From the IMG/VR virus record IMGVR_UViG_2617270940_000006: DNA of 56,409 nt. One strand, given 5' to 3'. The notes beneath the pieces were generated by a model. That model was not told the DNA's origin. It saw only the letters and a list, made by a program, of their open reading frames with translations, and made no database searches. Source of the stretch: a virus (lineage: Duplodnaviria; Heunggongvirae; Uroviricota; Caudoviricetes). The stretch's first letter is position 1. Every line of letters begins with the position of its first letter. Positions 4,975-50,840 of the stretch are shown here, piece after piece. The translations under genes were made by a program, and so were the position numbers.

Positions 4975-5256
4975 TATTGCATCTCTTAGCTACTGACTAA
5001 TGCGTTCTATTTTACACATAAGTTTTTAATCAATTTTACAGGCTCAAAGTGTAGAGCTTCTGGGTGTCTAAGACGACAAGTTATGCCTGTTTCTGTATAT
5101 AAATAATAAGTAACTTATTAAATATATACGGAAGCAGGTCTTTTAAAAGACACCCACCAGAACAACTCCCTTCCGTTTCCACTTCCCAAAAATATCTCCA
5201 GTCGCTATGATTCGCTCACTTAGATAAGTAAGTACATACCTATTAAAGGGAATCAT

Positions 5257-5982
5257 GTGAGCCAGATCTTCTTCAACACTATCGACAATGACCAGTACGA
5301 TTTCATGACAGAGTGGAATACCGCTGTTATGGACAAGTGGGTCGCTGAAAACATTGGTTTGTCGCGCTGTAAAGACGAGGCTGAACTCTTCGAGACGAAG
5401 TGGTTTGATTACCGCGACATGCACCCACTTATGGCCACATGCCTTTTCACTGAGGCATACAAGCGCCAGTACTCATACATCATGCTGTCGCATGGTCGTG
5501 AACACTATGAGACGGCTCCATTCACAACCGGTCTGAAGCGTGTGCCATATCAGGAGTTGTCGACGGTCAACAAAACGTCGCTCTGGAAAGCACGCCAGTT
5601 TGCTGACCGCTATTGCTGCTCATACGACTACTTTATCTCCACCGTTCTTTCCGCAGCTGCACGACGGCTGTGGGACAAATTACCGCGCCCCCAGCATCTC
5701 TGGCAGCCCGAGTTGATCGAGATATTCGAAGAGAAGTTAGCCAAACGCGCTGTAACCCGTCTGGATGACTCTCTGGTGAGTTTTAAGCATCTTGGAGACA
5801 TGCAGCGTGACCCGATTCAGGAACGCTATTTTGAGTGGATTCTGGAGCGTCTGCGTGGCATTACCCGAGATAAACGCATCCGTATCATCTTCTCCGCTGT
5901 CTGGTTGATGGAAATCGTGCCTGAGCGTGTGATTTACGCGCACTTCCCGGAAGAACTGGAAGAAGCACGGCGATTCTGTTGA
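5257..5982 (+). CDS. Hypothetical protein
   Basis: 241-aa ORF preceded by a class A palindromic motif; no recognisable domain. Confidence 0.5.
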   Translation: MSQIFFNTIDNDQYDFMTEWNTAVMDKWVAENIGLSRCKDEAELFETKWFDYRDMHPLMATCLFTEAYKRQYSYIMLSHGREHYETAPFTTGLKRVPYQELSTVNKTSLWKARQFADRYCCSYDYFISTVLSAAARRLWDKLPRPQHLWQPELIEIFEEKLAKRAVTRLDDSLVSFKHLGDMQRDPIQERYFEWILERLRGITRDKRIRIIFSAVWLMEIVPERVIYAHFPEELEEARRFC

Positions 5983-6042
5983 TCCCCTATCTGGCTTTTT
6001 TAGTATTAGAAAACAAATTGTTTAAGCACCAAAGGAAAGCAC

Positions 6043-7383
6043 ATGACCGAACTTTGCCACACAGGACGAGGGTTGTCTGAAGAGTTCGACGACGACTTCC
6101 AGAATCGACTCGCAGCCTACTTCTGTCGCGACCATGAATTTCTGACTCGCGCCGGTGATCTGGTTGCGCCAAACCAGTTCTCCAATGCGGCCAACGCCAT
6201 TCTGGTGAACATGGTGTCGGGCTACTACAGAATGTATAAGAGCGCACCATCATCATCAGCCATCCTCGACATGCTCAAACGCGCCAAACGCGATAAGACG
6301 ATCCGCGAAGAGCTGTTCCCTGACGTTGTTGAGGCGTTTAAGCGCATTCTCGCTGAGAAGCTGTCAGATACGGCGTACATGGTCGACCAGGTCGCGACAT
6401 TTGCTAAAAGCGTAGCGTTCGACGATGCGCTAATTAAAGCGGCTGAGATGAAAGAGAAGGGTGATTTCCAGGGCGCGATGGCAATCATGGCTAAGGTCCA
6501 GCAAATTGGCTCTAACGAAGCGACCGGCATTTACGATTACTTCGCAGAATCAGCGGAGCGTTACAAGGCCCGTGAGTACGAAGCGTCCGACGATTACGTG
6601 CCAAACAGCATCACTACCGGCCTCCCGCTGCTCGACAAGCTGCTTTACCAGAAAGGCTGGGCAAAGCGTGAAATGGTGCTGTTTATGGGCTTCGCTAAGT
6701 CTGGTAAATCGACGGCGATGGGGGAGTTTTCCATCAACGCCACGCTTGCCGGTTACAACGTCCTGTATCTGTCGCTGGAAGTTCACACCTCCATTCTGTC
6801 AGATCGCTTTGACGCCCGTCTGTCTGAGACCGAAATGTCCAGGCTGGTGGAACGTCGCGATGACGTCCATCGCAAACTGGCGGAGCTGGGTGCGACGAAA
6901 GGCGTGGGAAGTTTGTGGATTGTTGAACGACCGTCCGGAAGCATGTCGCCCGCAGATCTGGACCGTATGTTGGGCAGCATGAAAGCCAACGGTATGGTCC
7001 TCGATATGGTTGTGGTCGACTACGCTGACCTGATGCGTGCCAGCTACGACCTCCGCGACGACCGCGCTAACATTCGCAGCATCTACACTGACCTGCGTGC
7101 GCTGTACGACAAACACAACGTTGCCGGCATCACGGCATCGCAGACTAACAGAGAAGGTGGCGCTTCTGAGGTGGCTACAATGATGCACGCAGCGGACAAC
7201 ATCGAGAAGGTGCGTATCGCTGACCTCGTTATCACTATCAACAAAACGGAAGAAGAAGAAGCGAAAGGCGAAGCGCGTCTTTACTTCGCTGGTTCACGTA
7301 ACCAGAAAGGCGGCGTAAGCATCCGCGTTAAGCAGAACCTCGAACAAATGCGATTCATCGAACGCATTATGGACGTCCTCTAA
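6043..7383 (+). CDS. DnaB-like replicative helicase
   Basis: RecA-fold C-terminal domain with Walker A (GFAKSGKST) and Walker B (VVVDYADLM); conserved AAAGGAAAGCACATG start context. Confidence 0.8.
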   Translation: MTELCHTGRGLSEEFDDDFQNRLAAYFCRDHEFLTRAGDLVAPNQFSNAANAILVNMVSGYYRMYKSAPSSSAILDMLKRAKRDKTIREELFPDVVEAFKRILAEKLSDTAYMVDQVATFAKSVAFDDALIKAAEMKEKGDFQGAMAIMAKVQQIGSNEATGIYDYFAESAERYKAREYEASDDYVPNSITTGLPLLDKLLYQKGWAKREMVLFMGFAKSGKSTAMGEFSINATLAGYNVLYLSLEVHTSILSDRFDARLSETEMSRLVERRDDVHRKLAELGATKGVGSLWIVERPSGSMSPADLDRMLGSMKANGMVLDMVVVDYADLMRASYDLRDDRANIRSIYTDLRALYDKHNVAGITASQTNREGGASEVATMMHAADNIEKVRIADLVITINKTEEEEAKGEARLYFAGSRNQKGGVSIRVKQNLEQMRFIERIMDVL

Positions 7384-7470
7384 AAAAGAAGGCGTGGGGA
7401 AACACTCTCCACGCCTGTCTCCAGAAGAGAACAAATTTCTCTTTTGCCAAAACCACAAAAGAAAAAACAC

Positions 7471-9571: not shown

Positions 9572-10582
9572 TTAGTCGTAGGATACGGCAAATATCGCCT
9601 GGCCTTGAACTTCCCCAGGCTGTAAAGCTTCCTCTTTCACGCGAACGTATTTTGCGGTAATCGGGAAGATGTACTGTTCCTGAATAGCCGCCATTTTAGG
9701 TAATCTGTTCATCAGGGTATCGCCCAGCTTTAACGGTGTCGTTGCATTACCATTGTAAATCTGGAACCCTACACCCTTAGCACCATCGGACAATGTATTT
9801 TTCAATATTGTTCCACTATCATCCCACACACCACGCTCAACTTTAAAAGTCACTGGATTAGTCGTGACGTTATAGACACTATCGCAATTTAGGACCAGAT
9901 CTACAGAACCTGATTTTGAGTTATTGGCAGATAGCATCTCACTTATCGTTGTTTCTGGTATTCTTATTTCGTAAGTCGGTTGCGAGAAACGACAGGTTGT
10001 GGGTTTGTGTTTAACAGTAATGGTTAGTTTTTGTTCGTAAGCATCGCCTTTATTTAACAACCCCAATAAATTGCACAATATCCATGAAAAAATATTTGAA
10101 CTGCATTGATTATCAGATAAAAAGTTACCCGCTGGCTTTTTTAATTCGAATGAATCCCCCTCTACCGCTTCACCATGATCACTTCTATATGTAGTTGGTG
10201 GTATATATGAGGCCGTTAACTTCAGTTGTTTATTATTAATGGTATCAGCAACAGAATAGGTTTTAGGCGACAGAAGCGAACCACTCGTTTCTACAGGAAA
10301 TCCATCAGCCTCAAGCTTTAATTTAATAAAAATAGACTTATTGCTGGAGCCATCTTTCATTTCAACAATATAGTCATCTAACGTTGTTGCAAAATACATC
10401 TTATCCCCCCTCGAGTTACATTCATAAGATCCTTGCAGGTTGGGATTAAAACTTACTATTGTTGAATCCCTTGTTAAGTCCAGTGTAATTGGTTGAGTTG
10501 CTGTCCAAGTTCCCTTAGGGGTACATTTCGCCTGCCCAAAAAATGGAATAATCAACAAAAACAAAAACCAATATTTCTTCAT
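9572..10582 (-). CDS. Fimbrial minor subunit / tip adhesin candidate
   Basis: Signal peptide (MKKYWFLFLLIIPFFGQA); distal gene of the chaperone-usher operon; start set 11 bp after the usher stop. Confidence 0.55.
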   Translation of the reverse strand: MKKYWFLFLLIIPFFGQAKCTPKGTWTATQPITLDLTRDSTIVSFNPNLQGSYECNSRGDKMYFATTLDDYIVEMKDGSSNKSIFIKLKLEADGFPVETSGSLLSPKTYSVADTINNKQLKLTASYIPPTTYRSDHGEAVEGDSFELKKPAGNFLSDNQCSSNIFSWILCNLLGLLNKGDAYEQKLTITVKHKPTTCRFSQPTYEIRIPETTISEMLSANNSKSGSVDLVLNCDSVYNVTTNPVTFKVERGVWDDSGTILKNTLSDGAKGVGFQIYNGNATTPLKLGDTLMNRLPKMAAIQEQYIFPITAKYVRVKEEALQPGEVQGQAIFAVSYD

Positions 10583-10592
10583 AAAAAATCCT

Positions 10593-13085
10593 TTAACGAC
10601 AAATATAAACTTTATTCTCTTCGATAACTTTATCAAAGGTAATAGTACAGAATTGTTCCTGCTGTTTATTAACCGAGACGCGAATCGATGCGGGAACATC
10701 ATCAGTGCGAATAAATATCCGACTTCCCTGTCCTACCAAGCCCACATTCTTACCGCTTTCATCTTCAACTTCATAACCGAACGATAATGGAGAACCATCC
10801 GGGCGCTGAGCAAGGAAATACCAGGGTTTACGTTTGTCAGTATCAAACTGCGTCATCACAACGGCCCCACGATAAGGAGCGGTGCTTTTACGGTTGCCCA
10901 GTAGTGCCACATCGCTTTGACTGTCAGAAGTATCCAGCATCAACGTGTTTTTACGATACGGCGTCAGGCTGTCATAAATAGCGTAACCTCGGCTATCCGT
11001 GCTCAGGTAACGATACCCCTGTACCGCAGCCCCATCCAGCCCCGGAGCATGGACGATGGTAAATGTATCTGAAAGTCTGGGAGCCAGTGCTATCCCGTCT
11101 GACCACGCGACTAAACCACCTTGAATATTACCACTTATCTGTTGATATTTTTTCGACTGGCTATAGCTGCCACCAATGGTAGCCACTGGCGCACGCCAAA
11201 TCAGATTTCCACCTGCTGTTGCTTCGCTGTCCTGTTGTTGATGGCTAAAGTTAGCCCCGTAGCTGAACTGATCACGGTTCCCAGCTACACCACTGAGGCT
11301 GGTAGTATTTGACTGGTAGCCGTCTTTATCAAATGTGGTCGAGTTAGAGATAAATAAATCTCGTCGTTTTTCGGTGATATTATCACGCCACGAGAAGGGG
11401 ATTGAGAAAAATAAGTTAATGCGTCTGTCTTCGCTGTTATCCTCATCGTATGTCTGGCTAACCGACAAGGTATAACTTAGACGTTCCCATGAGTTCGTAT
11501 AGCTTAGTTGGTAATTTTTCCCTGTCCCGCTACGTTCCCAGTAATCTCGCCATTGACCGCTGATCGCCAGATACCCCCAATTTTCCGGTAATGACTGGTT
11601 GATATTTAAAGAAAAGCTATTCTTGCGACCAAAATCATACTGGTAGTAGTTGGCAATGTCATAGCCTGAGTTGTCTTCTCGATTGTATCTATTTTTGTTA
11701 TTTGCCCATACATGATCGTTAAAAGTACGATAACCCCGAGAGGAATAACGCCAGGCCGCCAGAGAAAATTGTGTTCCGCTCTGAGAGAGATATTTATTCC
11801 AGGCAATCTGATAACTTTGACCGTTAAACACATCACCGTTGTCTTGCTTGCTGTATGAATGGGTAAAATCAACCGATATAGCACCAATCGGTGTATTCCA
11901 TCCTGTTCCAAGAACAAACGATGAGTAATTATCAGATAACAGCGTGCCGCCATAACCTGTCAGCAAATTGTTGAAACCATGCTTATAGCTTCCCTGGATA
12001 AAATCAGATTGATTGCTGGCTCCTTCAATATGACTACGTCCGGCTGAAAATTCATATTTAGAAACGCCAGGTTGCAACATATTTGGCACCGATGAATAAG
12101 GCACCCGATAGTACGACGTTGAACCATCAGCTTCTTTGACGATAACTTCCAAATCTGCCCCACCATTAGAAAGTTGCAAATCATCAATGGCGAATGGGCC
12201 TGGCGGTACTTCTTTCTGGTAAACCACAAAACCATTTTGTTCTATGGTGACGAGTGCGTTACTCTGGGCAACGCCGCGTACCACAGGAGTAAAATTCTGT
12301 TTAGAGTTCGGTAACATCTGCATATCGCGCCAAAGGCGCACGCCGCGAAAACGCACGGAGTCAAAAACATCAGAACCAGTATACATTTCACCTGCGCGAA
12401 ACGTGCCGAGAATTTGTGGAATTCCACGTTCCAGATATAGCGTGTTACTCTTCCATTTACCGCTGTTTTCGTCGCTTTTCGTATAATTGGCATTTGAATG
12501 CAGCTGCCAGCCCAGGAGATTTAACCCACTGTTCAGATTTAGATAGCTACTTTTATCATCTCCGCCGTTTTTATAATCACTGTAATACTGACTGGCATAA
12601 TAAGATGTATATAATGCGTTAATCCCGCGATCCCATGCTTCAGGCGGAACATAGCCATGTTCATATTCCAGAACATAGGCTTGGGGCACGCTTAATTTTA
12701 GGTTAAAATGCCCAATATCATAGTCGACGCTGCCTCCCTGGACAGCATCCCGAAGTGGTACACATTCTACGCCTTTATCGATACTAATTCCTTCAGTGAG
12801 GATCCCAATTTGCTTTAATTGCTCCATGGATAAACATGTTGCATTAGGGTCATCTTTAATATCAATATCATAGTGGCCACGCCATTGATTATTCAGATAA
12901 ACATCCATAGCGTAGATACCCGGCATCGGCTTATCACTATCAATATGGTAGTTAGAAATTTTCTCCCCATTTAAACCACCAATCATAAAATTGGTATTAA
13001 ACGTTTCACCCTTAGCCCATGTATGCGAAGTCGCTAATACTGACAGAATAGCCAGTGTAATAGAATTAAACTTTGACATAACCAA
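10593..13085 (-). CDS. Fimbrial outer-membrane usher
   Basis: 830 aa with signal peptide; size and position between chaperone and adhesin are typical of usher proteins. Confidence 0.9.
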   Translation of the reverse strand: MVMSKFNSITLAILSVLATSHTWAKGETFNTNFMIGGLNGEKISNYHIDSDKPMPGIYAMDVYLNNQWRGHYDIDIKDDPNATCLSMEQLKQIGILTEGISIDKGVECVPLRDAVQGGSVDYDIGHFNLKLSVPQAYVLEYEHGYVPPEAWDRGINALYTSYYASQYYSDYKNGGDDKSSYLNLNSGLNLLGWQLHSNANYTKSDENSGKWKSNTLYLERGIPQILGTFRAGEMYTGSDVFDSVRFRGVRLWRDMQMLPNSKQNFTPVVRGVAQSNALVTIEQNGFVVYQKEVPPGPFAIDDLQLSNGGADLEVIVKEADGSTSYYRVPYSSVPNMLQPGVSKYEFSAGRSHIEGASNQSDFIQGSYKHGFNNLLTGYGGTLLSDNYSSFVLGTGWNTPIGAISVDFTHSYSKQDNGDVFNGQSYQIAWNKYLSQSGTQFSLAAWRYSSRGYRTFNDHVWANNKNRYNREDNSGYDIANYYQYDFGRKNSFSLNINQSLPENWGYLAISGQWRDYWERSGTGKNYQLSYTNSWERLSYTLSVSQTYDEDNSEDRRINLFFSIPFSWRDNITEKRRDLFISNSTTFDKDGYQSNTTSLSGVAGNRDQFSYGANFSHQQQDSEATAGGNLIWRAPVATIGGSYSQSKKYQQISGNIQGGLVAWSDGIALAPRLSDTFTIVHAPGLDGAAVQGYRYLSTDSRGYAIYDSLTPYRKNTLMLDTSDSQSDVALLGNRKSTAPYRGAVVMTQFDTDKRKPWYFLAQRPDGSPLSFGYEVEDESGKNVGLVGQGSRIFIRTDDVPASIRVSVNKQQEQFCTITFDKVIEENKVYICR

Positions 13086-13096
13086 TCCCTGATAAT

Positions 13097-13777
13097 CTAT
13101 TTGGCAGTTTTTATTTTTTCACTCAAATAGTTTCCATGATCATCAATCAGAGTAACATTGTAATAGTTAACAACGGATGTCGTTTTGACAGTCTGATCTG
13201 ACCAGGGTGCCAGCAGTAGTGTCTCCTTATTAATTTTCGCATTCCCGGTTAATTCAGGAATGGTTATCCAGTTCGCTGAATTATTTTTTATGTTAATGCC
13301 TCTATCAACGGGTCTGATATTAATCCGGGAAAAACTCTCTTTATCGACTCTTGTTATACCCTTTGGGCGATAAATAAATTTGATACGATTTTGCATCGCG
13401 AATTTAATCAGATTCTTGCCTTCGTATTTCTCACTATTAGGTGGAATATCCAGTACATTAAGGAAGAACAGACTTTCGCGATCTTTAGGTAGAGTGTTCG
13501 CCAGTTGTTTAATTTTCAGTTGCTGTCCTTCACCCTTACTAACATGAACTACCGGTGGAGTCAGCACAAAAGGTACACTAATCTTTTCCGGAGGAAGGCT
13601 GGCATCGCCATCATCAATCCACGACTGAACAAGAGCACTACGCTCACCTTCATTCATTAACTGAACTGCAATCTCTTTTTTCTGTTCCGGATAAATAACG
13701 CGAGTGCCGTAAATATAGACACCGCCCCACGCAGATGGGACCGTTACGGTTAGTAAGAAGGCTATTAATTTTTTCAT
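13097..13777 (-). CDS. Fimbrial periplasmic chaperone (PapD-like)
   Basis: Signal peptide plus characteristic chaperone length and operon position; start placed at MKKLIAFLL. Confidence 0.85.
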   Translation of the reverse strand: MKKLIAFLLTVTVPSAWGGVYIYGTRVIYPEQKKEIAVQLMNEGERSALVQSWIDDGDASLPPEKISVPFVLTPPVVHVSKGEGQQLKIKQLANTLPKDRESLFFLNVLDIPPNSEKYEGKNLIKFAMQNRIKFIYRPKGITRVDKESFSRINIRPVDRGINIKNNSANWITIPELTGNAKINKETLLLAPWSDQTVKTTSVVNYYNVTLIDDHGNYLSEKIKTAK

Positions 13778-13832
13778 GATAACAATCCTTGCGATTGAAA
13801 ATCGGCGACCGAAGCCGCCGATAAACATCATG

Positions 13833-14381: not shown

Positions 14382-14511
14382 AGACTAATCCTTAACTAAT
14401 TTGCTTTAACTAAAAAAGAGATCGCAATCTCTTGCTAATAAATTACTAAAAATAAAAATGATAGAGCAATATAAAAGAATATTTTTTATTTTAATCAAAA
14501 ACATTTCCATG

Positions 14512-16058: not shown

Positions 16059-16156
16059 TGGCTTCTTCGTATAGCAGACTATTGCGCTCGATATAATAAG
16101 TAGATACTTACTTATTTTTCTGAAAGAATACTTTCATCTGTTAGTCAGGAGTTGCT

Positions 16157-16969: not shown

Positions 16970-17049
16970 GCCTCGATAAAACATTTAGCCCCTCGTGGGG
17001 CTTCTTTAAACTGCGATTAATAAGTAAGTACAAGATTACGGTTAGAAGC

Positions 17050-19403: not shown

Positions 19404-19709
19404 ATGAGCAATTTGACTTCCTTCGACTGGTGGCTGGCAACCTACCTTGTTGCGGCCGGCTTCGGATTTGCCTTTTACGTTGGTCAGTTAATCGTAAAGC
19501 TACTGCTGATAAGATTCGCCAGCCATAAACGCATAGACGACGGTCTGTGGCGTCTGGGGTCCCTGTTAGAGACGCATTACGGCGAACTCAAGGAAAACGA
19601 AACTATCACTATTCAAGCGAAGCGTTTTACCGCCATCATCACGAGAACTCCGGAACAAAAGGGGAGCCTGATCAAAAAGATAGCAACTAAACGCATTACA
19701 GATAGATAA
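19404..19709 (+). CDS. Small membrane protein
   Basis: 101-aa ORF with an N-terminal TM helix; overlaps the preceding small ORF by ATGA. Confidence 0.4.
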   Translation: MSNLTSFDWWLATYLVAAGFGFAFYVGQLIVKLLLIRFASHKRIDDGLWRLGSLLETHYGELKENETITIQAKRFTAIITRTPEQKGSLIKKIATKRITDR

Positions 19710-20452
19710 GTATTTACTTACTTATCTAATATGTATAAGATCACTTTGTTTTCGTTGAGATGCGACTGTTTGAACGTTAAATATAACTGCAAACGAAGAT
19801 GCATACCTGGCAGTAGCCTAAGAAGCCAAACACCAGCGAGGTCAGTTTCCAGCCTCGTCACCAAAATGGGACACACTGAGCGAGTGTGATTGCAGAACGC
19901 AGAATAGGGCATATTGCACCATCCATGCCCTATTCAATGAAGTAACAGAATGGGCGGTTGGTTTCATCATTCCATTCACCCATCCCGGTTTCAGCTGACC
20001 GTCCATTCTGTTACGTCATTTCCATTACTTATGTCGTTTATACTTGGGTTAAAAGCGGCGACGTAACCCGGCTGACTTGGTTAGTCAGCACATAACGTTG
20101 AGATCACTGATTTTTCTTAAAATCATACAGGCGATTCCACATAGCTGTAGCGACTGATCAATATGTTGGGTTGAACATTAATCGGTTCAGTGATCTCAAC
20201 GTTGTGAAAGCAGGATTAATTAACCCTCTAGTGAAAACATTGTTGCCTTTATTGCCCCTGGCTTCACAACATGTATGATTCCATACATCCAATAAGATTG
20301 AAGAATCTAACGGCAATCAACCACCGAGAAAGATTCCAGATCTTCGCTCATATGAGCGAGCCACATACCTCGTCTGGCACTAACGTAAAGTGCAAGTTGC
20401 GGGAAAGTTTCTGGCTGCCTGGTTGTCCATAAGCTAGTACCGCCGCGAAAAT

Positions 20453-21597: not shown

Positions 21598-22701
21598 ATG
21601 AAAAACACTTTTGATAAAGCACGCGCAGCAGAAAACACCTCTAGAGAAGCCATCGAGTATCTCGAACGCGCTTCCGGTTTGTCAGCAGTGTCGACCACCA
21701 ATTTCGACGGTGACATGTCGTTTTCTTCCGCATTCATGTTATTCACTCGCTTATCTTTGCTGATAACGAGACGTCGACCTGAAATAGCTGTTCATTGTAT
21801 TTTGATACATGTAATGCCGCATATCTGTGAAGTAAAAGTAAGTGACATTAGTAGGGTTTTAGTCAACCAGCTGGTGAACCCATTAATACTTGAGGGCAAG
21901 ATCGTCCAGGGCAGACGTGTGTTCTCGCTGATGAAGCAGTTTCTCAGTTGGTGTGCATTTCAGGGCTTAATTGATACATCCCCATTGAACGATATGTCGC
22001 TTAACAGAGTAGCCGGTGGCGCGAAGCCCACGCCGCGCGAGCGCAAACTGACCGACGCAGAGGTCTGGGTCTTTTGGAATGTATGGGACTACTTCAACGT
22101 ATGTGAGGGTACAAAGTGGGCGGCCAGATTATGCCTTGTAGCGGCCAGACGACCAGATGAAGTGCTCCGAGCTAAAAGATCAGAATTCAACCTCGAATAT
22201 AATTTATGGAATCAAGGAACGAGGAATAAATCGGCTCGCCAGCACTCGTTACCATTAAGCCCGCTAATGCGCAAATGTGTTGAGGAGCTGATCAAATACG
22301 GAAAAGGCAGCCAGTGGCTTGTTCCTTCAAACAAGAAACAGGGTGAGGATGTGCCAATGTCTAAGGTGGCCATATCACAGGCGTTGAGAAGGATTTTAGA
22401 ACGTCCAGAGTTGATGGAGCTTGAGCCATTTACCCCCCGAGATTTGCGTCGTACTGCGCGTAGTTACTTCCCCGCGTTAGGCATAAGTCAGGAGGTATCC
22501 CGCAAAATTATGAACCACAGTCTTGAGGGGATAGATCGAGTATACGATCGACACGATTATATAGACGAGATGCGAGACGCCTTAAACAGTTTTTCGGCGT
22601 ACATCGCATCAATCGTAGAGAAACAGGATTTAGAGGAGATAGATCATAAGTTCAAGGGAGATCGACTCGCTACTGAGCTAATCCGTGTAAATTTCTCATA
22701 G
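21598..22701 (+). CDS. Tyrosine site-specific recombinase
   Basis: C-terminal catalytic region with RD...LRRTARSYF and HSLEGIDRVYDRHDY, consistent with the R-H-R-Y signature. Confidence 0.8.
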   Translation: MKNTFDKARAAENTSREAIEYLERASGLSAVSTTNFDGDMSFSSAFMLFTRLSLLITRRRPEIAVHCILIHVMPHICEVKVSDISRVLVNQLVNPLILEGKIVQGRRVFSLMKQFLSWCAFQGLIDTSPLNDMSLNRVAGGAKPTPRERKLTDAEVWVFWNVWDYFNVCEGTKWAARLCLVAARRPDEVLRAKRSEFNLEYNLWNQGTRNKSARQHSLPLSPLMRKCVEELIKYGKGSQWLVPSNKKQGEDVPMSKVAISQALRRILERPELMELEPFTPRDLRRTARSYFPALGISQEVSRKIMNHSLEGIDRVYDRHDYIDEMRDALNSFSAYIASIVEKQDLEEIDHKFKGDRLATELIRVNFS

Positions 22702-23094
22702 CGACTTGATTGCCTCAACAACCCGCTCCGACGCACCACGTTGGTCACCGAAACGTCGACGGAAGGCTTCCAGAACTAGTTTTTCATCTTTAGTCAGAGG
22801 GGCTGTGCCTTCGTCGCGAAAAAACGCTAACAGCTCTGGATGACGCTCTTCCAGCACCATTAGCATCAATCGGACCGAATCGGCATCCAATGCTTTAGCC
22901 AACGCTCTGACCTTGTCGATCGGAAGCGGGATTTTGCCGCTCTTGATAAGTGAAAGATTGTTAGGGTTTTTATAGCCTGCTTCTTTCGCGATGGTCGCCT
23001 GGCTTTTCGGAGAAATCGCGATTAAAGCGTCAATGTAAGCAGCGTAGCGACCTACTTTAGCTTCTGTTGTTTCGTTGGTAGCCATAATTATCAA
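22696..23094 (-). CDS. HTH (XRE/Cro-CI-like) transcriptional regulator
   Basis: 132 aa; helix-turn-helix segment TIAKEAGYKNPNNLSLIKSG; convergent with the recombinase gene. Confidence 0.6.
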   Translation of the reverse strand: MIIMATNETTEAKVGRYAAYIDALIAISPKSQATIAKEAGYKNPNNLSLIKSGKIPLPIDKVRALAKALDADSVRLMLMVLEERHPELLAFFRDEGTAPLTKDEKLVLEAFRRRFGDQRGASERVVEAIKSL

Positions 23095-23665
23095 CCTGCG
23101 TGTTTTGATTTTATTTGGTAAGTGCTTACTGATATTACATCAAAGGTTAGTGTTGTAAAGACTTATCTATTTTTTTACGTAGGTTTACTGACCGCAAAAG
23201 GCTTCATTAATAGACAACTATCTAAAAAATAACTCATTTAAGAACTTAAAACTAAGTTGTGTTTGATATATAAGTATTCCGTATTGATACAATAGGTAGT
23301 AGTATTGCAAGGCATTTACGTGTTCAGTTGGATGATATGAAATGAAAAAAATAACTTCTAATTTGATCGCCCTTGAGGTCGGACATACGGTTTCAATTGA
23401 CGATGATGGGGCAGCAGCCATACTCACTGAACTGCCAACAAAGTCTTTGTTACTTGACATGAAAGACGCAACCGCATACATCTTTGAGCTAAAGGGCAAG
23501 TGCTTCACTCTCATCAATACCGGCTGCGGTTCAGTAGCCGTCCGCACAATTTAACCCCCCCTCCCATCCTCTCTAGCGCCTGTACGAACAGATTAGATGC
23601 CTGTTCGTACAGTGATAAATTACGCACATCAGAAAACAAATTGTTTTAACAACAAGGGAATTCTA

Positions 23666-25897
23666 ATGTCCAAAAAAACCACCAAAGCTGTACTGAAAGA
23701 GGTGCAGGATTTTCGCGACTGTGTAAAACGAGTTGTAGCGATGCTTTCAGGTAAACAGATACCTGTTGCAGAACGAGGCAATGAAGCATATGTCCGCTAT
23801 AACCGGCGCGGCGAACCAGTGCTGGTAAACATCCCATCTATACCGGACGACGCGTCGCCAACCCTCATGAACGCAGTGCGTGGTTTTCTCGACCATGAGG
23901 TGGCCCATATTCTCTTTACTGAACCGAAAGTCGCAATGCAGATGCACGAAAGAGGAAAGGCTCCGTCTACGGGGCTTTGGAATGCGCTGGAAGACGTTTT
24001 TATTGAACGCAGAATGGGGCAGGTCTTTAACGGAACCCGGCGTAATTTACTTGCAACACAGAGTCTGGTTATCGACAAATACTTCAGGAATAAAGTACCA
24101 GAAGCGGTTTTAGCCTGTCACGGAGACCAGCGTGAATTGTTTTTGAAATTCTTCCTTTGCCCGGTCGTCCGCGCCTGGGATGGACAAAGCCCCTTCATCG
24201 ATTTTATGGAAGAACACTGGCGCCTTATCGAGAGGCCGGTAGCCTTACTAAAGGAGCATGGTATAGACGTGGCCGTTCGCAATATGTCGAACACTGAGGA
24301 TTGCGTGAAGGTCGCTGCTGCTATAGCCCAAATCATGCAGGATATGAAAGACAAGCCAGAGGGCAAATTACCAGAACTTAAATCATCTGCCAGAAAGCCG
24401 TCGGAGAGCAAAGACGAGTCCGAGGAAACGCCAGAATCAGGTGACGAGCCGTCTCATGGTGACTCTGCATCTAAGCCTGCCAAAGGCGAAGGCGATGACA
24501 AGGAAGAACGAGAAGATGATGCATCAGAAGAGGAAGATTCTGGGGATTCCGATTTGCCTGATTCATTAGATAAGGACTTACCTACACACGTTAAAGATAT
24601 TAGTGATACAGAAAGTAAATATACAGAAGCAGGCCACGAAGAGTCAGGAGACACCCCAGAATCCGATGCTATCGGCATGAAATCAAGTGACTCTGACACC
24701 GATGATGATGGCGGTGAGGACTCCGATACTGATCGTGGGGAAACTGAAGAAGAAGACGTCGAAGGCAAAAAAAATAAAGATGGTGCGGAAGTGCCCAAAG
24801 ACAGTGAGTCTGGCTTTGTTCCTGCGCCGGATGAAATGACTCTGGAGGAGGCGCTAAAGGCGCTCGACGAGATGGAAGACGGAATCGGTGAAATGACCGA
24901 AGACGCACTGTCGGCCACCATCAGCAAAGAGCTTATGAGCGTCTCACCTTCTGATTATCGGCCATACGATCGATCATACGACTTTATCGGGTTGATTGAT
25001 GGAGCCGAAGAGCATGTGAAGCGCACCAGAAAGACGTTCGGTGCAATACCAATGCACTCACCAGTCGACCGCTACCGTATGGTGCCAGAAGGCAGAAAAC
25101 TCTTTGAACTGAAAATCGAAAAACATCTGTCTGCAGGCGTTTCTTCGACGCTGGCCAAAGACCTGGAGCGGGCCATCGCCAGCCGCAACCGAGTTCAGTT
25201 TATACCTGGTCAGAGGCGTGGGCGGATACATGGCGCAAGCCTGTATCGTCTGGCAATGAACGACGACCGAGTGTTCCGCAAGAAGGAAGACCATAGAGCG
25301 GTGAACGCGTGTGTCCAGCAGGTCATCGACTTGTCCGGCTCAATGGATGGCGTGAAGATTCAACTGGCCCTAGCCAGTGCCTATACCATTGCGGATGCTT
25401 TAGATCGTATCAATGTCCCCAACATCATCACCGGCTTTACCACGTTCGGTAGCCCAGATTATGAAACCAGGTCGAAGCGCGGGTTTACACGCTTCGAGGC
25501 GCTCATGCTGCCCATTATCAAAAACTGGAATGAGAAAGCAAACTCTCCAGAGATCCGTGCTCGCATGGGATGCGTATGTGAGACGTTCCCCCTGCTCAAT
25601 AACGTCGATGGTGAGAGTGTCGCGCAACTGGCTACCCTGTTTGCAGGGCGAATGGAGGACAAAAAGATCATGCTGGTTATGAGTGATGGGGAGCCATGTG
25701 CTACAGGTAGTGGATTCCATCAGCATTTACGAACCGTCACCAAAGAAATTGAGACCTTGAGCGACATCGAACTGATGGCTATCGGCATTCTGACCGACGA
25801 ACCACGGCGTTACTACAAAAATTACGCACTGGTTAACAGTGTTGAAGAGTTAGGGCCGTCAGTCGTCACTGAGTTATCTCGTATCATTCTTGGGTAA
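23666..25897 (+). CDS. VWA-domain protein (CobT-like) with long acidic linker
   Basis: MIDAS-type DxSxS motif (DLSGSMDG) in the C-terminal domain; about 180-aa D/E/S-rich low-complexity stretch; start placed at the ATG with the conserved context. Confidence 0.65.
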   Translation: MSKKTTKAVLKEVQDFRDCVKRVVAMLSGKQIPVAERGNEAYVRYNRRGEPVLVNIPSIPDDASPTLMNAVRGFLDHEVAHILFTEPKVAMQMHERGKAPSTGLWNALEDVFIERRMGQVFNGTRRNLLATQSLVIDKYFRNKVPEAVLACHGDQRELFLKFFLCPVVRAWDGQSPFIDFMEEHWRLIERPVALLKEHGIDVAVRNMSNTEDCVKVAAAIAQIMQDMKDKPEGKLPELKSSARKPSESKDESEETPESGDEPSHGDSASKPAKGEGDDKEEREDDASEEEDSGDSDLPDSLDKDLPTHVKDISDTESKYTEAGHEESGDTPESDAIGMKSSDSDTDDDGGEDSDTDRGETEEEDVEGKKNKDGAEVPKDSESGFVPAPDEMTLEEALKALDEMEDGIGEMTEDALSATISKELMSVSPSDYRPYDRSYDFIGLIDGAEEHVKRTRKTFGAIPMHSPVDRYRMVPEGRKLFELKIEKHLSAGVSSTLAKDLERAIASRNRVQFIPGQRRGRIHGASLYRLAMNDDRVFRKKEDHRAVNACVQQVIDLSGSMDGVKIQLALASAYTIADALDRINVPNIITGFTTFGSPDYETRSKRGFTRFEALMLPIIKNWNEKANSPEIRARMGCVCETFPLLNNVDGESVAQLATLFAGRMEDKKIMLVMSDGEPCATGSGFHQHLRTVTKEIETLSDIELMAIGILTDEPRRYYKNYALVNSVEELGPSVVTELSRIILG

Positions 25898-25992
25898 TAG
25901 TTTTACCCTTAAAAATAAGTAACTACTTACTATACAGCCTAATATATTTCTATAAGATATACCCCACAAACGACAAACAGTAAGGAAAAAAC

Positions 25993-31613: not shown

Positions 31614-32066
31614 ATGAGCACCGATATCTACGAAAAAATCATGTCCGATCTGGAGTTCGACCGCGACAATCTGGAGGAAGTCTGGCGTCAGCAACCGCGT
31701 CTGTTGATGGAGTATGGCTCTAAGCTGGCACGGGCAGAACGTGAGGTTGCAGATGCAAAACTCTCTCTCGACGCGATCGAGGCAAAAATCTATAACAACG
31801 AGCGTAAGAGCTTGAGTATGAATGGAATTAAGTTTAATGAATCCGTACTGGAAGCGAAGGTTAGAACCAACCCGCAATACCTCGCAAAGCGCCAGAAACT
31901 CGACGATGCTCGACACATTGCAGACCTGTACAAGCACGCTGTAGCCGCCTTCTCCCACCGCCGCGATATGATTGTCCAGGCGTCGAAGATGGCTATCGTA
32001 GAGATAGAGCGTCTGGGGGCCGAACGATTCCATTTACCCCGTCAATTTATGCTAGATAGTAAGTAA
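31614..32066 (+). CDS. Hypothetical coiled-coil protein
   Basis: About 150 aa, charged and helical; immediately upstream of the SSB gene. Confidence 0.4.
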   Translation: MSTDIYEKIMSDLEFDRDNLEEVWRQQPRLLMEYGSKLARAEREVADAKLSLDAIEAKIYNNERKSLSMNGIKFNESVLEAKVRTNPQYLAKRQKLDDARHIADLYKHAVAAFSHRRDMIVQASKMAIVEIERLGAERFHLPRQFMLDSK

Positions 32067-32164
32067 GTACTGATCTATCATTCTTCTCGCTCGAAAGAGC
32101 CACGAACAAACGAACGCCCAATGCGCATAGCGCCAATGGCCACAATCACAACAAGGAGAAATAC

Positions 32165-36801: not shown

Positions 36802-36826
36802 AAGGCGTCCATTGGACGCCTTTTTA
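36802..36826 (+). terminator. Rho-independent terminator
   Basis: AAGGCGTCC-ATTG-GACGCC followed by TTTTT. Confidence 0.65.
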
Positions 36827-36887
36827 TACTTGAAAGTATATAAGTACTTACTTATCATTTCTACACCCAAACGACAAAAGGAAACAC

Positions 36888-41267: not shown

Positions 41268-41276
41268 GACGCGAAT

Positions 41277-42440: not shown

Positions 42441-42454
42441 GGGAATTTACAATT

Positions 42455-46173
<3,719 letters not shown>

Positions 46174-46353
46174 CCACTTCATCTACACTCGCGGCATTGG
46201 AAGCAAAGATATGGTCGTCTGGCACCTGATGCACATTGATAAGGCTATCAACCACACGCTGGAGAAGTTCTTTCCACCAGCCTGAACACAATGATTGTGC
46301 GCCTTATAGCGCCCATTAAGATAGATAAGTACTTACCAACAAGGAGAAAACAC

Positions 46354-46629: not shown

Positions 46630-46844
46630 TATTTACAGCAAAAATATATAAGTTAGCATTTACCTATCATGAAAATTTTATTAGATATCACGTTACTTAT
46701 TATCTCGATAGCCTTTGTGCTCGACTGCATCTTCACAGGGGCAATCCGTAAAGCGCTGGCGCCTGTTAATGATGTGATGATCAATGCGCTGGCCGTAGTA
46801 CTGGTCTTCGACTCAGCATTAGGCGTTTTCAAAGGAGTCGTGGC

Positions 46845-49339: not shown

Positions 49340-49500
49340 AAATCAGATAATTACAAAATCAGGCATCACTCCCCTTCTGGGGATAATGTGTGATCGAAAT
49401 AAACACGCCGCAACGCAAAATTTACAATATTTCCAAGAATATCAGTCATCTGCCGCAGAAAAACAGGCTCGGAGTTATCCAGTTAAAACATTGTCTCCTA

Positions 49501-49714
49501 CTCACTACAGTGGATACCGACTACTCTCCAGAGAGGTTGTTTTGCTCTTCATAGCGGTTATTATGCTCTCTACAGTGGTTATTTTGCTCCCTATAGTGGA
49601 TAGTAACCCCTTCTCAAGCCAGTAACCGCAAGCGCTGGAGACGATCGGGGATCTCTTTTGATCTTCTGTAGGATCTCTCTGGGGATCTAAATATTGGATC
49701 GGGCCTGTGAATAA
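49501..49714. repeat. Second iteron / GATC / DnaA-box module
   Basis: About 5 iterons over 49501-49608; six GATC sites over 49643-49700; TTATTCACA on the complementary strand at 49706-49714. Confidence 0.65.
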
Positions 49715-49799
49715 AGTGAATAAGTAAACAGGCATTTGCAAACTCCGGTGCGCCTTATCCGTTATCGTTGCCCCGGACAAAATTATTTGAACAAGAATT

Positions 49800-50444
49800 A
49801 TGGATCTTAAACGCACGCGCTGGGTTCGCCGTCTTGAAGATGGCTCCTACACCATTGAATCAAACACTAGTCTGAACAAACAGAAGTTGCTCTGCGACCT
49901 TTGCGGCATTGCTTCGAAATGCCCGATTAACGAAACCCGGCTTAAACTCCACGACGCCGGTGCGCATTTCCACCTAAACAGCTGCATACGTTACGTGCCA
50001 CTACTAGCATTTCGTAAACCGATCATCGGATTGGATGCTCCCTACTTCAACACACTGCGCTCTGGTGTCACTTGGCGAGATCGTGTCGAACCTGGCAAAC
50101 TCGTTTGTCTGGTTGAAGCTGATACCGGAAATGTCATCCGGTTCGGGAGAGTTGATAAGGTCTACTCAGGCCCAGTGGATGAAATGCTGCGGAAACACAG
50201 CCGATTTAACCATCTCTGCATGGGCGGAGAGAAGATTGAGAAGGTTGGCGAAGTAATTCGCAAATCTTACGGACACTTTCTGAATGATAACAGCCTTCTG
50301 ACAGCCATTTACATTCGCCATGTCGATCGGGAGTTCGACACGGAGTATCACAGTGCTGAAGAGTTGAATCTTGTAGACCCTCGTCCAAAAGCTGGGGTAA
50401 TAGACATCAGCAGAGCGCGTCAGAAGCCCTCAGAGACGTTTTAA
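49800..50444 (+). CDS. Hypothetical protein
   Basis: 214-aa ORF; no recognisable motif. Confidence 0.45.
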   Translation: MDLKRTRWVRRLEDGSYTIESNTSLNKQKLLCDLCGIASKCPINETRLKLHDAGAHFHLNSCIRYVPLLAFRKPIIGLDAPYFNTLRSGVTWRDRVEPGKLVCLVEADTGNVIRFGRVDKVYSGPVDEMLRKHSRFNHLCMGGEKIEKVGEVIRKSYGHFLNDNSLLTAIYIRHVDREFDTEYHSAEELNLVDPRPKAGVIDISRARQKPSETF

Positions 50445-50840
50445 AGGCAAACTCATGCTTTTTACCGGGCATAAAATATGGTGTCTTAGAAAGACACTGA
50501 GAGCTTTAGGGATTAATGCATGAGTGAATTTTATTCAAGAGCAGAAACTGTGGCCGACGGATGCGTTTGAAGACGACGCACGCAAACGCCGTAGATGTCA
50601 TCTCACAACTTCACCGTCCGTTCTCCTTTTTCATTTCTTGTCATCAGTAAATGACTGCTCTCATAAAATTGCTTGTGACGTTTAGAAATCGTTGCTGCCC
50701 TATCTGATAGGTATTTACTTACTTATTTTTTTGTCATTATCATGTGCCTTTATATTCTTTTGTATGCCGTGTTGTCTGGGTTGTACGCCTCTTATGCACG
50801 CTTAGAATTTGTATCAAAATAACCACAAAGGAAAAGACAC

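Follow-up and report, generated by a model that had tools for sequence, protein, structure and literature searches.

What does the palindromic motif (ATAAGTA...TACTTAT) that recurs upstream of backbone genes do in this stretch of DNA? The stretch analyzed, hereafter the window, is 56,409 nt long, with 85% coding and 15% non-coding sequence, and is an SSU5/pHCM2-type phage-plasmid of E. coli. A sequence-only reading had proposed that at least nine copies serve either one element-encoded regulator, as its common promoter/operator, or a phage-specific transcription factor that recognises them. We named the motif motif A; no published description of it was found in the literature.

The copies carrying TAAGTA or TACTTA are variants of a single 20-bp palindrome, idealised as the half-sites ATARGTAAGT and ACTTACYTAT. 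About 11 bp, or one helical turn, separate the centres of its conserved arms, TARGTAA and TTACYTA. All nine named copies are present, each a few bases from the position first given, and TAAGTACTTA at 36841-36850 is indeed a perfect palindrome. Anchored at the A of ATAAGTA/ATAGGTA, they lie at 5224, 16096, 17020, 19706, 25915, 32059, 36840, 46325 and 50707, share ATARGTAnnTAC without exception, and in this register agree with the palindrome ATAAGTAAGTACTTACTTAT at 14-18 of its 20 positions. For two of them a register 4 bp upstream is better (36840 becomes 36836, 17/20; 46325 becomes 46321, 15/20).

Enrichment over a shuffled background is clear. TAAGTA occurs 44 times, against 19.1 ± 4.5 expected from 100 dinucleotide-preserving shuffles, none of which reached 44. 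The window holds 5, 9 and 15 matches to ATAAGTAAGTACTTACTTAT with at most three, four and five mismatches, respectively, where 200 Markov-1 simulations gave 0, 0 and 0.15. With the degenerate consensus ATARGTAAGTACTTACYTAT, 13 loci match at up to five mismatches, adding 23114, 46648, 5099 (weak) and 24566 (weak and intragenic) to the original nine. The nine sites are thus real, but the scope first proposed was too small, as there are 13 loci in the window and about 25 genome-wide, the latter including late structural genes. The fimbrial, type I R-M and IS cargo of the window contains zero motif A loci.

The intergenic siting of the copies was borne out: 12 of the 13 loci lie in the non-coding 15% or at its edge, overlapping a gene end by at most 8 bases (binomial tail ~2e-9). 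The gap of 20-130 bp had to be revised, as the next plus-strand start codon follows the palindrome after 1-114 nt, in many cases after only 10-13 nt (5224, 17020 and 46321). Most sites precede a plus-strand gene as described, but the 19706 site is followed by ~730 nt without an annotated gene and then tRNA-Asn, and 23114 precedes a minus-strand gene.

The individual sites are placed as follows. At 5224..5243, ATAAGTAAGTACATACCTAT has one mismatch to the degenerate consensus, lies 13 nt before the 241-aa gene that heads the dnaB/primase block, and has orthologues in S56 plasmid B, Cyrano, SSU5 and pJN2-26. A sigma-70 promoter predicted by consensus match (TTCCCA-17-TATGAT, 5183..5211, plus strand) puts this palindrome at about +6..+25, downstream of the -10, whose hexamer TATGAT/TATCAT is kept in 4/4 relatives. 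ATAAGTAGATACTTACTTAT (16096..16115), also with orthologous sites, is found 41 nt before a 270-aa gene, and its first two bases are overlapped by TATAAT at 16092-16097. Only the left half is good in ATAAGTAAGTACAAGATTAC (17020..17039), which lies just 3' of a hairpin (16987-17002) and 10 nt before a 158-aa gene and DNA ligase; Cyrano retains this half-site form at 35607. ATAAGTATTTACTTACTTAT (19706..19725), with orthologues in 4/4 relatives, stands where the ligase operon ends, before the tRNA-Asn region. ATAAGTAACTACTTACTATA (25915..25934) lies directly 3' of a hairpin and 58 nt before a CobS-like ATPase gene, GTAAGTAAGTACTGATCTAT (32059..32078) lies 86 nt before a gp32-like SSB gene and overlaps a promoter-like TAGATA-17-TATCAT at 32053-32081, and ATAGGTATTTACTTACTTAT (50707..50726) lies 114 nt before an SbcD-like gene; orthologous sites exist for all three.

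In the right part of the window, GTATATAAGTACTTACTTAT (36836..36855) occupies the 17-bp spacer of a near-consensus predicted sigma-70 promoter (TTGAAA-17-TATCAT, 10/12 matches, 36830..36858, plus strand) that immediately follows a terminator (36802-36822), a design common to S56 plasmid B, Cyrano and SSU5. ATAGATAAGTACTTACCAAC (46321..46340) lies 13 nt before a 91-aa gene with the Shine-Dalgarno AAGGAG immediately 3', and its first two bases are overlapped by a -10-like TAAGAT (TAATAT in SSU5). ATAAGTTAGCATTTACCTAT (46648..46667) ends 1 nt before an ATG and contains the -10 of a predicted promoter, TTTACA-16-TAGCAT (46632-46659), kept in four genomes. Whether the weak site within the CobT-like gene (24566..24585, four mismatches) belongs to motif A is uncertain; its position is kept in S56 plasmid B, SSU5 and pJN2-26. 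The weak sequence at 5099..5118 (five mismatches), at the centre of a long inverted repeat (5086-5138), is probably not a member. This inverted repeat belongs to a three-copy repeat family.

To analyze conservation, we compared E. coli S56 plasmid B, Cyrano, SSU5 and Klebsiella pJN2-26; SSU5-like elements bearing motif A occur in E. coli, Salmonella and Klebsiella. The complete relatives have 22-26 sites each, which fall into 25 groups at orthologous junctions, including those before structural and lysis genes. Across the 25 groups from these four elements, arm columns are 83-100% invariant, against 33-60% for the flanks. In Cyrano, 26 of 27 sites are intergenic in a genome that is 87% coding. 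Even a relative with only ~40% protein identity carries TTAAGTAAGTACTTACTTAA in comparable short gaps between structural genes, one of which resembles the terminase/portal junction by ORF order.

The symmetry of the motif and its register relative to promoters tell how it may be read. At the symmetric positions 4 and 17, the pairs G-C, A-T, A-C and G-T are similarly frequent, so the half-sites vary independently, and RNA folding was better than shuffles for 4 of nine window sites and no better for the other 5. The absence of covariation and the few stable folds speak against an RNA hairpin or a polymerase promoter and for a dimeric DNA-binding protein as the reader of motif A. The palindrome lies at -29..-10 of the 36830 promoter, at -18..+2 of the 46632 promoter, and at -8..+12 both at 46321 and at the promoter of a repressor gene described below. 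The registers are variable, all fall within the polymerase footprint, and several would be impossible for an activator, so an operator fits better. Every promoter in this argument is a consensus match, and a window scan gives no more sigma-70-like sites than shuffles do; many motif A sites have poor -35 hexamers.

The best candidate for the binder is a 129-aa XRE-type helix-turn-helix protein encoded at 22696..23085 on the minus strand. It is the orthologue of the Cyrano 'putative repressor' CYRAN_45 and matches PHROG 8 'transcriptional regulator'. AlphaFold predicts a five-helix HTH domain (residues 11-80, block-mean pLDDT 79-90) whose fold resembles C.AhdI, 434 repressor, SinR and Stl; no Pfam HTH model scored above threshold for this protein, and an S24 peptidase domain is absent from it. 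The recognition helix YKNxNxLSLIKSGK is invariant in alleles that are 60-100% identical, all of which share motif A. Its gene has a predicted minus-strand promoter (TTTACA-16-TAATAT with an upstream TG as extended -10, 23132..23159), and a motif A variant with the core GGTAAGTGCTTAC (23114..23133) lies over the predicted start site. In 80/80 related viral loci from five allele groups, the core (A/G)GTAAG(C/T)ACTTACC directly follows TTTACA-N14-TGtTAATAT. In the Cyrano lysogen the repressor is expressed ~10x above background. SSU5 lacks int, the XRE repressor and the adjacent 70-aa gene, and keeps 22 good sites; the sites are therefore not demonstrably repressor-dependent. The other DNA-binding proteins found in all four elements, namely a FljA-like PF03614 protein, an 88-aa, a 70-aa and a Cra-like protein, are candidates as well.

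Between the two original alternatives, a common operator of an element-encoded regulator is favored by the dyad symmetry, the independent half-sites, the strict intergenic placement, the conservation at orthologous junctions and the copy over the start site of the repressor's own promoter. A phage-specific transcription-factor site in the sense of a promoter element found no support, given a symmetric motif in several registers relative to -10/-35 and start codons and no phage RNA polymerase or sigma factor found in the window. We therefore propose, with a probability of roughly 0.55, that motif A is the operator of a dimeric element-encoded regulator that would silence viral genes in the plasmid state. 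With arm centres one helical turn apart, a symmetric dimer could read both arms from a single DNA face. About 25 such operators would sit in short gaps before the lytic blocks, which serve replication, recombination, nucleotide metabolism, head, tail and lysis functions, and would overlap either the core promoter or bases 1-25 of the transcript. Bound in the plasmid (lysogenic) state, they would occlude RNA polymerase or block its passage, so that the viral programme stays silent and insulated from the constitutive plasmid genes between the lytic blocks. The occupant would most likely be the 129-aa XRE repressor, and the weaker operator across its own start site may provide negative autoregulation. 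No convincing promoter was seen in the terminase/portal gap and at some other sites, so occlusion cannot account for those sites by itself, and a roadblock role is assumed.

Expression in Cyrano (LB vs macrophages, supplementary table of PMC9928086) is consistent with this proposal for two sites. CYRAN_56, the orthologue of the gene after the 36836 site, is at the read-count floor in LB and shows in macrophages a step-up of 3.6 log2 over the preceding gene; CYRAN_60, after the 46648 site, is likewise at the floor in LB and steps up by 3.65 log2. Both have near-consensus promoters under motif A that are silent in the lysogen and inducible. First genes after sites showed a median rise of +1.35 log2 versus +0.77 elsewhere (one-sided Mann-Whitney p = 0.006), while the step-up test over all sites was not significant (p = 0.58). 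For most genes, these data do not separate 'repressed' from 'not activated'.

We considered that motif A might instead be bound by an activator of middle and late transcription of the P1 Lpa or Mu C kind, which would replace a missing -35, and regard this as unlikely. The binder would be a protein present in all elements including the lytic SSU5, such as the FljA-like PF03614 or another small DNA-binding protein. The weak -35 hexamers at most sites agree with this, and about half of the sites can be read with a TATnAT from palindrome positions 18-20, which centres the palindrome near -20; the activator palindrome of P1 late promoters is also centred near -20. Sites also stand before late structural and lysis genes, usually outside the direct control of classical lysogeny repressors, and persist in SSU5 despite the missing XRE repressor. 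Where the palindrome covers a predicted start site, which is the case for the repressor gene, the activator would repress instead, giving a neat bistable switch. However, the register varies, and at 5224 a conserved -10 precedes the palindrome. At 46321 and 46648 only 1-13 nt separate the palindrome from the Shine-Dalgarno or ATG, which makes a start site 10 nt past it impossible, and about a third of the sites have the same problem. Since the flank preferences mirror each other (A-rich upstream, T-rich downstream), the opposite strand shows the apparent TATnAT as well. The largest step-ups occur at sites with near-consensus -35/-10 hexamers, which should need no activator yet are lysogen-silent. 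Moreover, the Rhizobium phages lack the FljA-like protein, yet at least one of them, RHEph10, shows an analogous network of palindromes. Dispersed centromere or silencing sites for a partition-family protein, coupling segregation to transcriptional control, appear quite improbable. KorB of RK2 and SopB with the four scattered centromeres of N15 illustrate how partition proteins can use palindromes dispersed over promoter regions, and this plasmid element encodes a ParA system and two ParB/Srx-like proteins, the operon of which is preceded by a motif A site (Cyrano 105107). However, upstream of parA there is no motif A copy but a different palindrome, motif B; in the Cyrano lysogen, read counts are at the floor for ParB1 and at background for ParB2, so neither would be available in the plasmid state; and the Pseudomonas phage nickie has both ParB homologues and no palindrome network.

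An RNA-level role, in which a 5'-UTR hairpin serves a nuclease or a translational repressor, seems very improbable to us. Sites do lie on the sense side of co-oriented genes, just 5' of their Shine-Dalgarno sequences or start codons, and some fold well (19706, -10.8 kcal/mol). PF03614 was founded on FljA, a protein that binds the leader of the fliC mRNA, which makes an RNA-binding role conceivable for its homologue, a family present in all SSU5-like elements. Against this, A-C at symmetric positions is as common as Watson-Crick pairs, the majority of folds do not exceed shuffles, two of the nine sites have no right arm, and nothing similar is found in the E. coli fliC leader. Transcripts from the 36830 promoter would not include the 36836 palindrome, which lies between the -35 and -10 hexamers of that promoter, after a terminator. 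Least credible, and close to negligible, is a promoter read by a phage-encoded RNA polymerase or sigma factor, or else a target for host regulation, e.g., by a NarL-type protein. The promoter-like position before many genes would suit it, RHEph10 has a sigma-70-family protein, and the arm TACYTAT resembles the NarL heptamer consensus TACYYMT. However, a search of the window proteins and of the annotations of all four relatives found no polymerase or sigma factor, and perfect dyad symmetry is no feature of polymerase promoters, which would then fire both ways. Motif A is confined to the phage-plasmid backbone, and the heptamer arrangement is unlike the 7-2-7 NarL site.

The proposed operator has parallels outside SSU5-like elements. 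Rhizobium phage RHEph10, a syntenic distant relative, carries a dispersed palindrome, CAGTMAATATTGAYTG, of which we know of no description; 11 of its 13 sites in 40 kb are in short intergenic gaps, 12-130 nt before genes. As in the window element, an XRE homologue (39% identical) is encoded in the same neighbourhood, whereas the motif sequence and the recognition helix differ and a sigma-70-family protein is encoded between cobS and dnaE. In nickie, a syntenic relative, neither the XRE repressor nor a genome-wide palindrome was found, and the phyletic correlation between repressor and palindrome covers three lineages only.

Among known systems, P1 is likewise a phage-plasmid of ~100 kb whose lytic genes are split over many transcription units, with a C1 operator that recurs more than 15 times before units and a repressor gene that is itself controlled. 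Its operators, however, are asymmetric 17-mers bound by an unrelated C1, whereas motif A is a symmetric 20-mer with a small XRE-type HTH candidate; and P1 late genes have the separate Lpa switch, whereas sites here also precede head, tail and lysis genes. The Cro-C1 (XRE) proteins of lambdoid, 434 and P22 type share the five-helix HTH fold (predicted here), a dyad operator whose half-sites are spaced by one helical turn, and an operator over the repressor's own promoter; they use two clustered operator regions by the repressor gene instead of ~25 single operators genome-wide. In the KorB/KorA regulon of IncP RK2, one palindromic operator recurs about a dozen times in promoter regions and coordinates the backbone genes, but the KorB operator is 13 bp long and KorB itself belongs to the ParB-family CTPases, and the ParB-like proteins here are unexpressed in the plasmid state and occur in a motif-less relative. 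LexA SOS boxes are also 20-bp palindromes with conserved arms around a variable centre, variable promoter positions, many scattered units and a weaker autoregulatory box. Their sequence and protein are different, and a genuine LexA box, separate from motif A, lies upstream of int at 21552-21567.

The sequence-only reading had listed nine copies of a TAAGTA/TACTTA palindrome upstream of genes. All nine were found, each a few bases from the position given, and TAAGTA is enriched, with 44 occurrences compared with 19.1 ± 4.5 in shuffled sequences. When aligned on the left arm, the nine copies share ATARGTAnnTAC and are variants of one perfect 20-bp palindrome, ATAAGTAAGT followed by ACTTACTTAT (in full, ATAGGTAAGTACTTACCTAT; general form, ATARGTAAGTACTTACYTAT), which we named motif A. 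Matches with up to three, four, and five mismatches to the palindrome numbered 5, 9, and 15, respectively, against 0, 0, and 0.15 in 200 Markov-1 simulations; the shuffles and simulations rule out chance or base composition as the source of the motif. The degenerate consensus, with up to five mismatches allowed, gave 13 loci in the window, and in this 85% coding DNA 12 of them are non-coding or overlap a gene end by no more than 8 bases. Two members were added, at 23114-23133 before a minus-strand regulator gene and at 46648-46667, together with two weak or doubtful ones, at 5099 in the center of a different repeat and at 24566 within the CobT-like gene. The next start codon lies 1 to 114 nt from the end of the palindrome, and at several sites only 1 to 13 nt. 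Motif A is a real, non-random, and conserved feature, regulatory in character.

The 56.4-kb window is a portion of an Escherichia coli phage-plasmid of the SSU5/pHCM2 type. It shows 99% identity to S56 plasmid B (NZ_CP010244.1) over most of its length, 100% identity to NZ_CP110979.1 across 23-43 kb, about 92% identity to Salmonella phage SSU5, and about 80-83% identity to Escherichia phage Cyrano and to Klebsiella phage-plasmids. The backbone genes, nearly all on the plus strand, encode ParA, DnaB, primase, ligase, DnaE, a gp32-like SSB, RepA, an integrase, CobT/CobS-like proteins, an exonuclease, an intein-containing RecA-like protein, and SbcCD. Three cargo insertions interrupt the backbone: an IS (1-1320), a minus-strand fimbrial operon (9572-15338), and a type I restriction-modification system with a transposase fragment behind it (37516-46173). 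Since no motif A site lies inside any of the three, the motif separates backbone from cargo and could serve as a compact signature for recognizing the SSU5-type backbone. This is of practical interest. Phage-plasmids of this type, which often carry resistance genes, are frequent in E. coli, Salmonella, Klebsiella, Enterobacter, and Citrobacter. Upstream of about 19.5 kb, the closest record, NZ_CP110979.1, instead has a resistance island (CTX-M-14, fosA3, qnrS1, dfrA14, and tet(A)) adjoining the backbone. As for individual backbone genes, the RecA-like recombinase gene (34455-36797) has 780 codons and is annotated as a LAGLIDADG homing endonuclease, and its SSU5 orthologue has 358 codons, consistent with an intein inserted in the gene of the window element and of Cyrano. 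ARAGORN called a tRNA-Asn gene at 20453-20526 (+), corresponding to tRNA genes in SSU5 and Cyrano, and a tRNA-Lys at 3118-3198 (−), which overlaps the start of parA and is probably a false positive.

To follow motif A beyond the window, we compared complete relatives. When up to five mismatches to the strict palindrome are allowed, S56 plasmid B has 26 sites and Cyrano 22; with up to four mismatches to the degenerate consensus, SSU5 and Klebsiella pJN2-26 have 22 each, several of those in pJN2-26 being perfect 20-mers. Each of these genomes carries 22-26 dispersed sites, in front of lytic units as in a regulon of the P1 C1 type. The sites form 25 orthologous groups, and the genes downstream include those for replication and nucleotide metabolism and the late genes for portal, scaffold, tail tube, tail tip, tail fiber, and holin. 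When orthologous regions are aligned, the arms (columns 2-8 and 14-19) show no variation in 83-100% of the groups, compared with 58-71% for the center and 33-60% for the ten bases on either side, the pattern of a phylogenetic footprint. In a metagenomic relative whose proteins are only about 40% identical, TTAAGTAAGTACTTACTTAA occurs in similar short gaps between structural genes, one of which resembles, by ORF order, the terminase/portal gap of 30 bp. Similar sequences also occur elsewhere. The exact 18-mer TARGTAAGTACTTACYTA was found as single occurrences in more than 120 unrelated bacterial contigs of a 596-Gb collection, many from Acidobacteriota and Opitutia metagenome bins, and these hits were set aside as uninformative. 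Three unrelated viral contigs (L027 2893-2960, L070 7163-7230, and L073 7530-7596) have the palindromes GTAAGTAAGTACTTACTTAT and TCAGTCAGCACTTACTGAT, about 47 bp apart, directly 5' of an operon in which an antirepressor-like gene comes after a small HTH gene. The proteins of these contigs showed no detectable similarity to phage-plasmid proteins, and the operon was dropped as a guide to the binder of motif A.

We then asked what kind of molecule reads motif A. The motif is symmetric, its arm centers are about 11 bp (one helical turn) apart, and its half-sites vary independently: at the symmetric positions 4 and 17, every one of the four genomes shows the combinations G-C, A-T, A-C, and G-T at appreciable frequency, A-C being as frequent as the Watson-Crick pairs, and no covariation was found at symmetric positions. 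RNA folds of four of the nine window copies beat shuffled controls; the other five were no better, and two copies lack the right arm. Because the combinations are independent and the RNA folds are weak, selection acts on half-site sequence and not on pairing, and a structured RNA such as a 5'-UTR hairpin, which would show compensatory changes and a stable fold common to the copies, was set aside. This arm geometry is what a symmetric dimer reading duplex DNA would be predicted to leave as its signature. A terminator-like hairpin lies directly before the sites at 17020, 25915, 36836, and 46321, and at some late-region sites a hairpin comes after the motif.

The position of the palindrome relative to promoters was informative. 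These promoters are predictions, sigma-70-like sites in the whole scan being no more numerous than in shuffles, and at the terminase/portal gap and some other sites we saw no convincing promoter. Sigma-70 consensus hexamers that the relatives share overlap the palindrome at differing registers. In the window, the palindrome fills the spacer (−29 to −10) of the predicted promoter TTGAAA-17-TATCAT at 36830-36858, a design that recurs in relatives within the end of the portal gene. It holds the −10 element (−18 to +2) of TTTACA-16-TAGCAT at 46632-46659, and its first two bases overlap the predicted −10 elements TAAGAT/TAATAT at 46321 and TAATAT of the regulator gene at 23114 (about −8 to +12 in both). 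At TTCCCA-17-TATGAT (5183-5211), it lies at about +6 to +25. With the start codon only 1 to 13 nt away at several sites, there is no space for a promoter 3' of the palindrome. The predicted registers, all inside the RNA polymerase footprint, have the look of repressor operators; an activator or a promoter element would require a single register, and from −29 to −10 through +6 to +25 there is no fixed distance to the −10 element and start site of the P1 Lpa type.

The sequence-only reading had left the choice between a shared promoter or operator and the site of a phage-specific transcription factor. The operator half of that proposal holds up well: we put at about 0.85 the probability that a dimeric DNA-binding protein encoded by the element uses motif A as its operator. 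The promoter-element half does not, as the motif is palindromic and occurs in several registers. A phage-specific polymerase or sigma factor would use a promoter without palindromic symmetry, and no gene for either was found in the window or in annotated relatives. Scanning ten hypothetical proteins of the window against Pfam and PHROG returned nothing relevant either, and a T7-type or sigma-specific promoter was rejected. An RNA element, a polymerase promoter, or a host-factor site are poorly supported readings of motif A.

Expression data bear on how the binder acts. The LF82 study provides read counts for each Cyrano gene (PMC9928086, supplementary table), with a median of 9.8 and a floor of 4.99 in LB lysogens. 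In this table, nearly all genes that come first after a motif site have 5-12 counts, and motif-less plasmid, toxin-antitoxin, and moron genes reach 50-7000. The best predicted promoters belong to the two sites that precede CYRAN_56 and CYRAN_60. In LB both genes stay at the floor, and at 6 h in macrophages each stands 3.6 log2 above the preceding gene; CYRAN_12 shows a step-up of 2.5 log2 over its preceding gene in macrophages. From medium to macrophage, first-after-site genes rose by a median of 1.35 log2 versus 0.77 for other silent genes (one-sided Mann-Whitney, p = 0.006), but the step-up tested across all motif sites was not significant (p = 0.58). Since near-consensus promoters are silent in the lysogen and yet inducible, we argue for active repression at the CYRAN_56 and CYRAN_60 sites; the data at most other sites fit repression and lack of activation alike. 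On balance, the binder of motif A probably acts as a repressor.

A possible alternative reading makes the same sites those of an activator of lytic genes which, in addition, turns the repressor promoter off. It would account for the weak −35 elements and for sites preceding late genes, but neither the variable register nor the sites lying right against start codons fit it. An unlikely one is a partition protein resembling KorB or N15 SopB. Such a ParB would be present in the plasmid state and co-occur with the motif, and we found otherwise. In the lysogen, ParB1 counts are at the floor and those of ParB2 do not exceed background, parA has no motif A site, and the syntenic Pseudomonas phage nickie encodes both ParB homologues and has no motif network; the lysogen expression and nickie thus weaken the ParB/KorB reading. 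We also considered an FljA-like protein of 173 aa (PF03614, "repressor of phase-1 flagellin"), which is encoded in all 12 SSU5-like phage records inspected; its gene lies outside the window (S56 plasmid B 104677-105201, L009 31978-32502; Cyrano 100780-101301) and is expressed at twice background in the lysogen. An mRNA-leader target, which the family suggests, was rejected, as nothing similar occurs in the leader of E. coli fliC. The region upstream of the gene is unconserved and has no motif A site, and the protein, missing from Rhizobium relatives, was reduced to a minor candidate for the binder.

For the operator reading, the strongest binder candidate is a 129-aa protein encoded at 22696-23085 (−) beside the integrase gene. 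Its Cyrano orthologue, CYRAN_45, carries the annotation putative repressor, and in the lysogen its expression is about ten-fold above background. It matches PHROG 8 and has no Pfam family above threshold and no C1 family match. Its AlphaFold model predicts with confidence a five-helix XRE-type HTH fold, similar to that of controller proteins (block-mean pLDDT of 79-90, residues 11-80), with C.AhdI, C.BclI, ClgR, SinR, 434 repressor, and Stl as the best structural matches (target TM-scores of 0.7-0.8), so that the element appears to encode a regulator of this fold. Nearly all detectable homologues lie on Enterobacteriaceae contigs that are about 100-116 kb long. Among related viral loci, whose allele groups range in identity from 100% to as low as 60%, the repressor promoter TTTACA-N14-TGtTAATAT is in 80 of 80 cases followed immediately by (A/G)GTAAG(C/T)ACTTACC, which would place the operator core over the repressor start site. 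By position, then, a putative operator overlaps the regulator's own promoter. This copy (23114-23133) departs from the consensus in its outer bases, a deviation that is frequent in autoregulatory operators. The recognition helix YKNxNxLSLIKSGK is invariant among these alleles, all of which share the motif.

Relatives that lack or have changed the candidate were also compared. SSU5, which was obtained as a plaque-forming phage, has no integrase, no candidate repressor, and no adjacent 70-aa gene, yet it has kept 22 sites. In nickie we found no homologue of the candidate, no FljA-like protein, and no genome-wide palindrome; the search for an analogous motif there gave only an early-region sigma-70-like box, TAAACGCTTGCAAA. 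The syntenic Rhizobium phage RHEph10 (NC_034248.1 15229-55447, L176) has no FljA-like gene and encodes a 39%-identical repressor homologue in the same neighborhood, with a different recognition helix, WTQSNMVTMIKKG. It carries a dispersed intergenic palindrome of its own, CAGTMAATATTGAYTG, at 13 sites in 40 kb, 11 of which lie 12-130 nt before genes. A different palindrome in the same positional role, accompanied by a diverged repressor, suggests an old co-evolving regulator-operator pair, one that could be used to study specificity change. These lines of evidence agree, though they are correlative and come from few lineages, and we give roughly even odds that this XRE protein is the binder. 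RHEph10 also encodes a replication protein of the RepC type and has, between cobS and dnaE, a gene of the sigma-70 family.

The closest functional analogue is the P1 C1 regulon, in which, as with motif A, many dispersed operators precede lytic units. The P1 operator differs in being an asymmetric 17-bp sequence, compared with a symmetric 20-mer here, and the P1 C1 protein is unrelated to the candidate repressor. Cro/C1 (XRE) repressors with dyad operators represent the same type of protein and operator, whereas here about 25 single operators are spread over 100 kb and reach the head, tail, and lysis genes. Scattered units are also coordinated by a single palindrome in the LexA regulon and in the KorB system of RK2, two more analogues. 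Full-text literature searches returned nothing on motif A, SSU5-like regulation, or the choice between the plasmid and lytic states, and a 2026 preprint on a phage-plasmid concerns a different, unrelated family. This choice is now open to direct experiments, given the 20-bp operator, its roughly 25 mapped sites, and a specific candidate for the repressor, and lysis-lysogeny control in a clinically common phage-plasmid family, undescribed so far, becomes directly testable.

A second palindrome, motif B (GAAAACAANTTGTTTTC), occurs in the window at 3080-3096, 6009-6025, and 23632-23648, 17-33 nt before parA, dnaB, and the CobT-like gene (3 matches versus 0.48 expected). In Cyrano, 16 of the 20 matches are intergenic, lying 9-71 nt before TerS, ParA, DnaB, CobT, NrdB, TciA, and many small genes in the 85-98 kb region, which is without motif A. 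Its orientation flips between orthologous sites. Motif B may be the operator of a second regulator or, by analogy with N15, may represent dispersed centromere-like sites of a system of ParA and a 119-aa protein. We speculated, as an unlikely extension, that the two interleaved families mark almost every transcription unit and form a genome-wide operator grammar, shared by SSU5-like phage-plasmids and, in diverged form, by the Rhizobium relatives. The small XRE repressor on motif A would then act less as a classical promoter repressor than through some 25 roadblock insulators, walling off each lytic block, the interior of the head-tail operon included, from the constitutively transcribed plasmid, toxin-antitoxin, and cargo genes between them. 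If so, a 100-kb virus could bear expressed accessory genes anywhere without lytic leakage.

Other repeats and signals were noted. A long inverted repeat, CCTGTTTCTGTATAT...ATATACGGAAGCAGG, at 5086-5138 has an A+T-rich center resembling half of motif A. Relatives have three copies per genome, one of which, in the linear records of Cyrano and SSU5, bridges the two ends immediately 5' of the small terminase gene, and a single arm lies inside the CobT-like gene at about 24619-24633 (−); packaging, replication, and partition are possible functions. A strong LexA-box-like sequence, ACTGTTTATAAATACAGTA, at 21551-21569 ends about 30 nt before the integrase start codon and is kept upstream of int in Cyrano (41046) and pJN2-26 (88948). 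As the integrase gene runs toward the repressor gene and into its 3' end, SOS-induced int transcription might disturb repressor expression. Ciprofloxacin has been reported to induce Cyrano 39-fold. Finally, the 12-mer ATGATTCCATAC has five copies (21467-21497; 19255, 20275, and 27662(−)), two of which form a perfect inverted repeat just 5' of the LexA box and int. S56 plasmid B, Cyrano, and pJN2-26 have a copy at each of these five positions, and the int-less SSU5 at only two; these copies may be recombinase binding sites.
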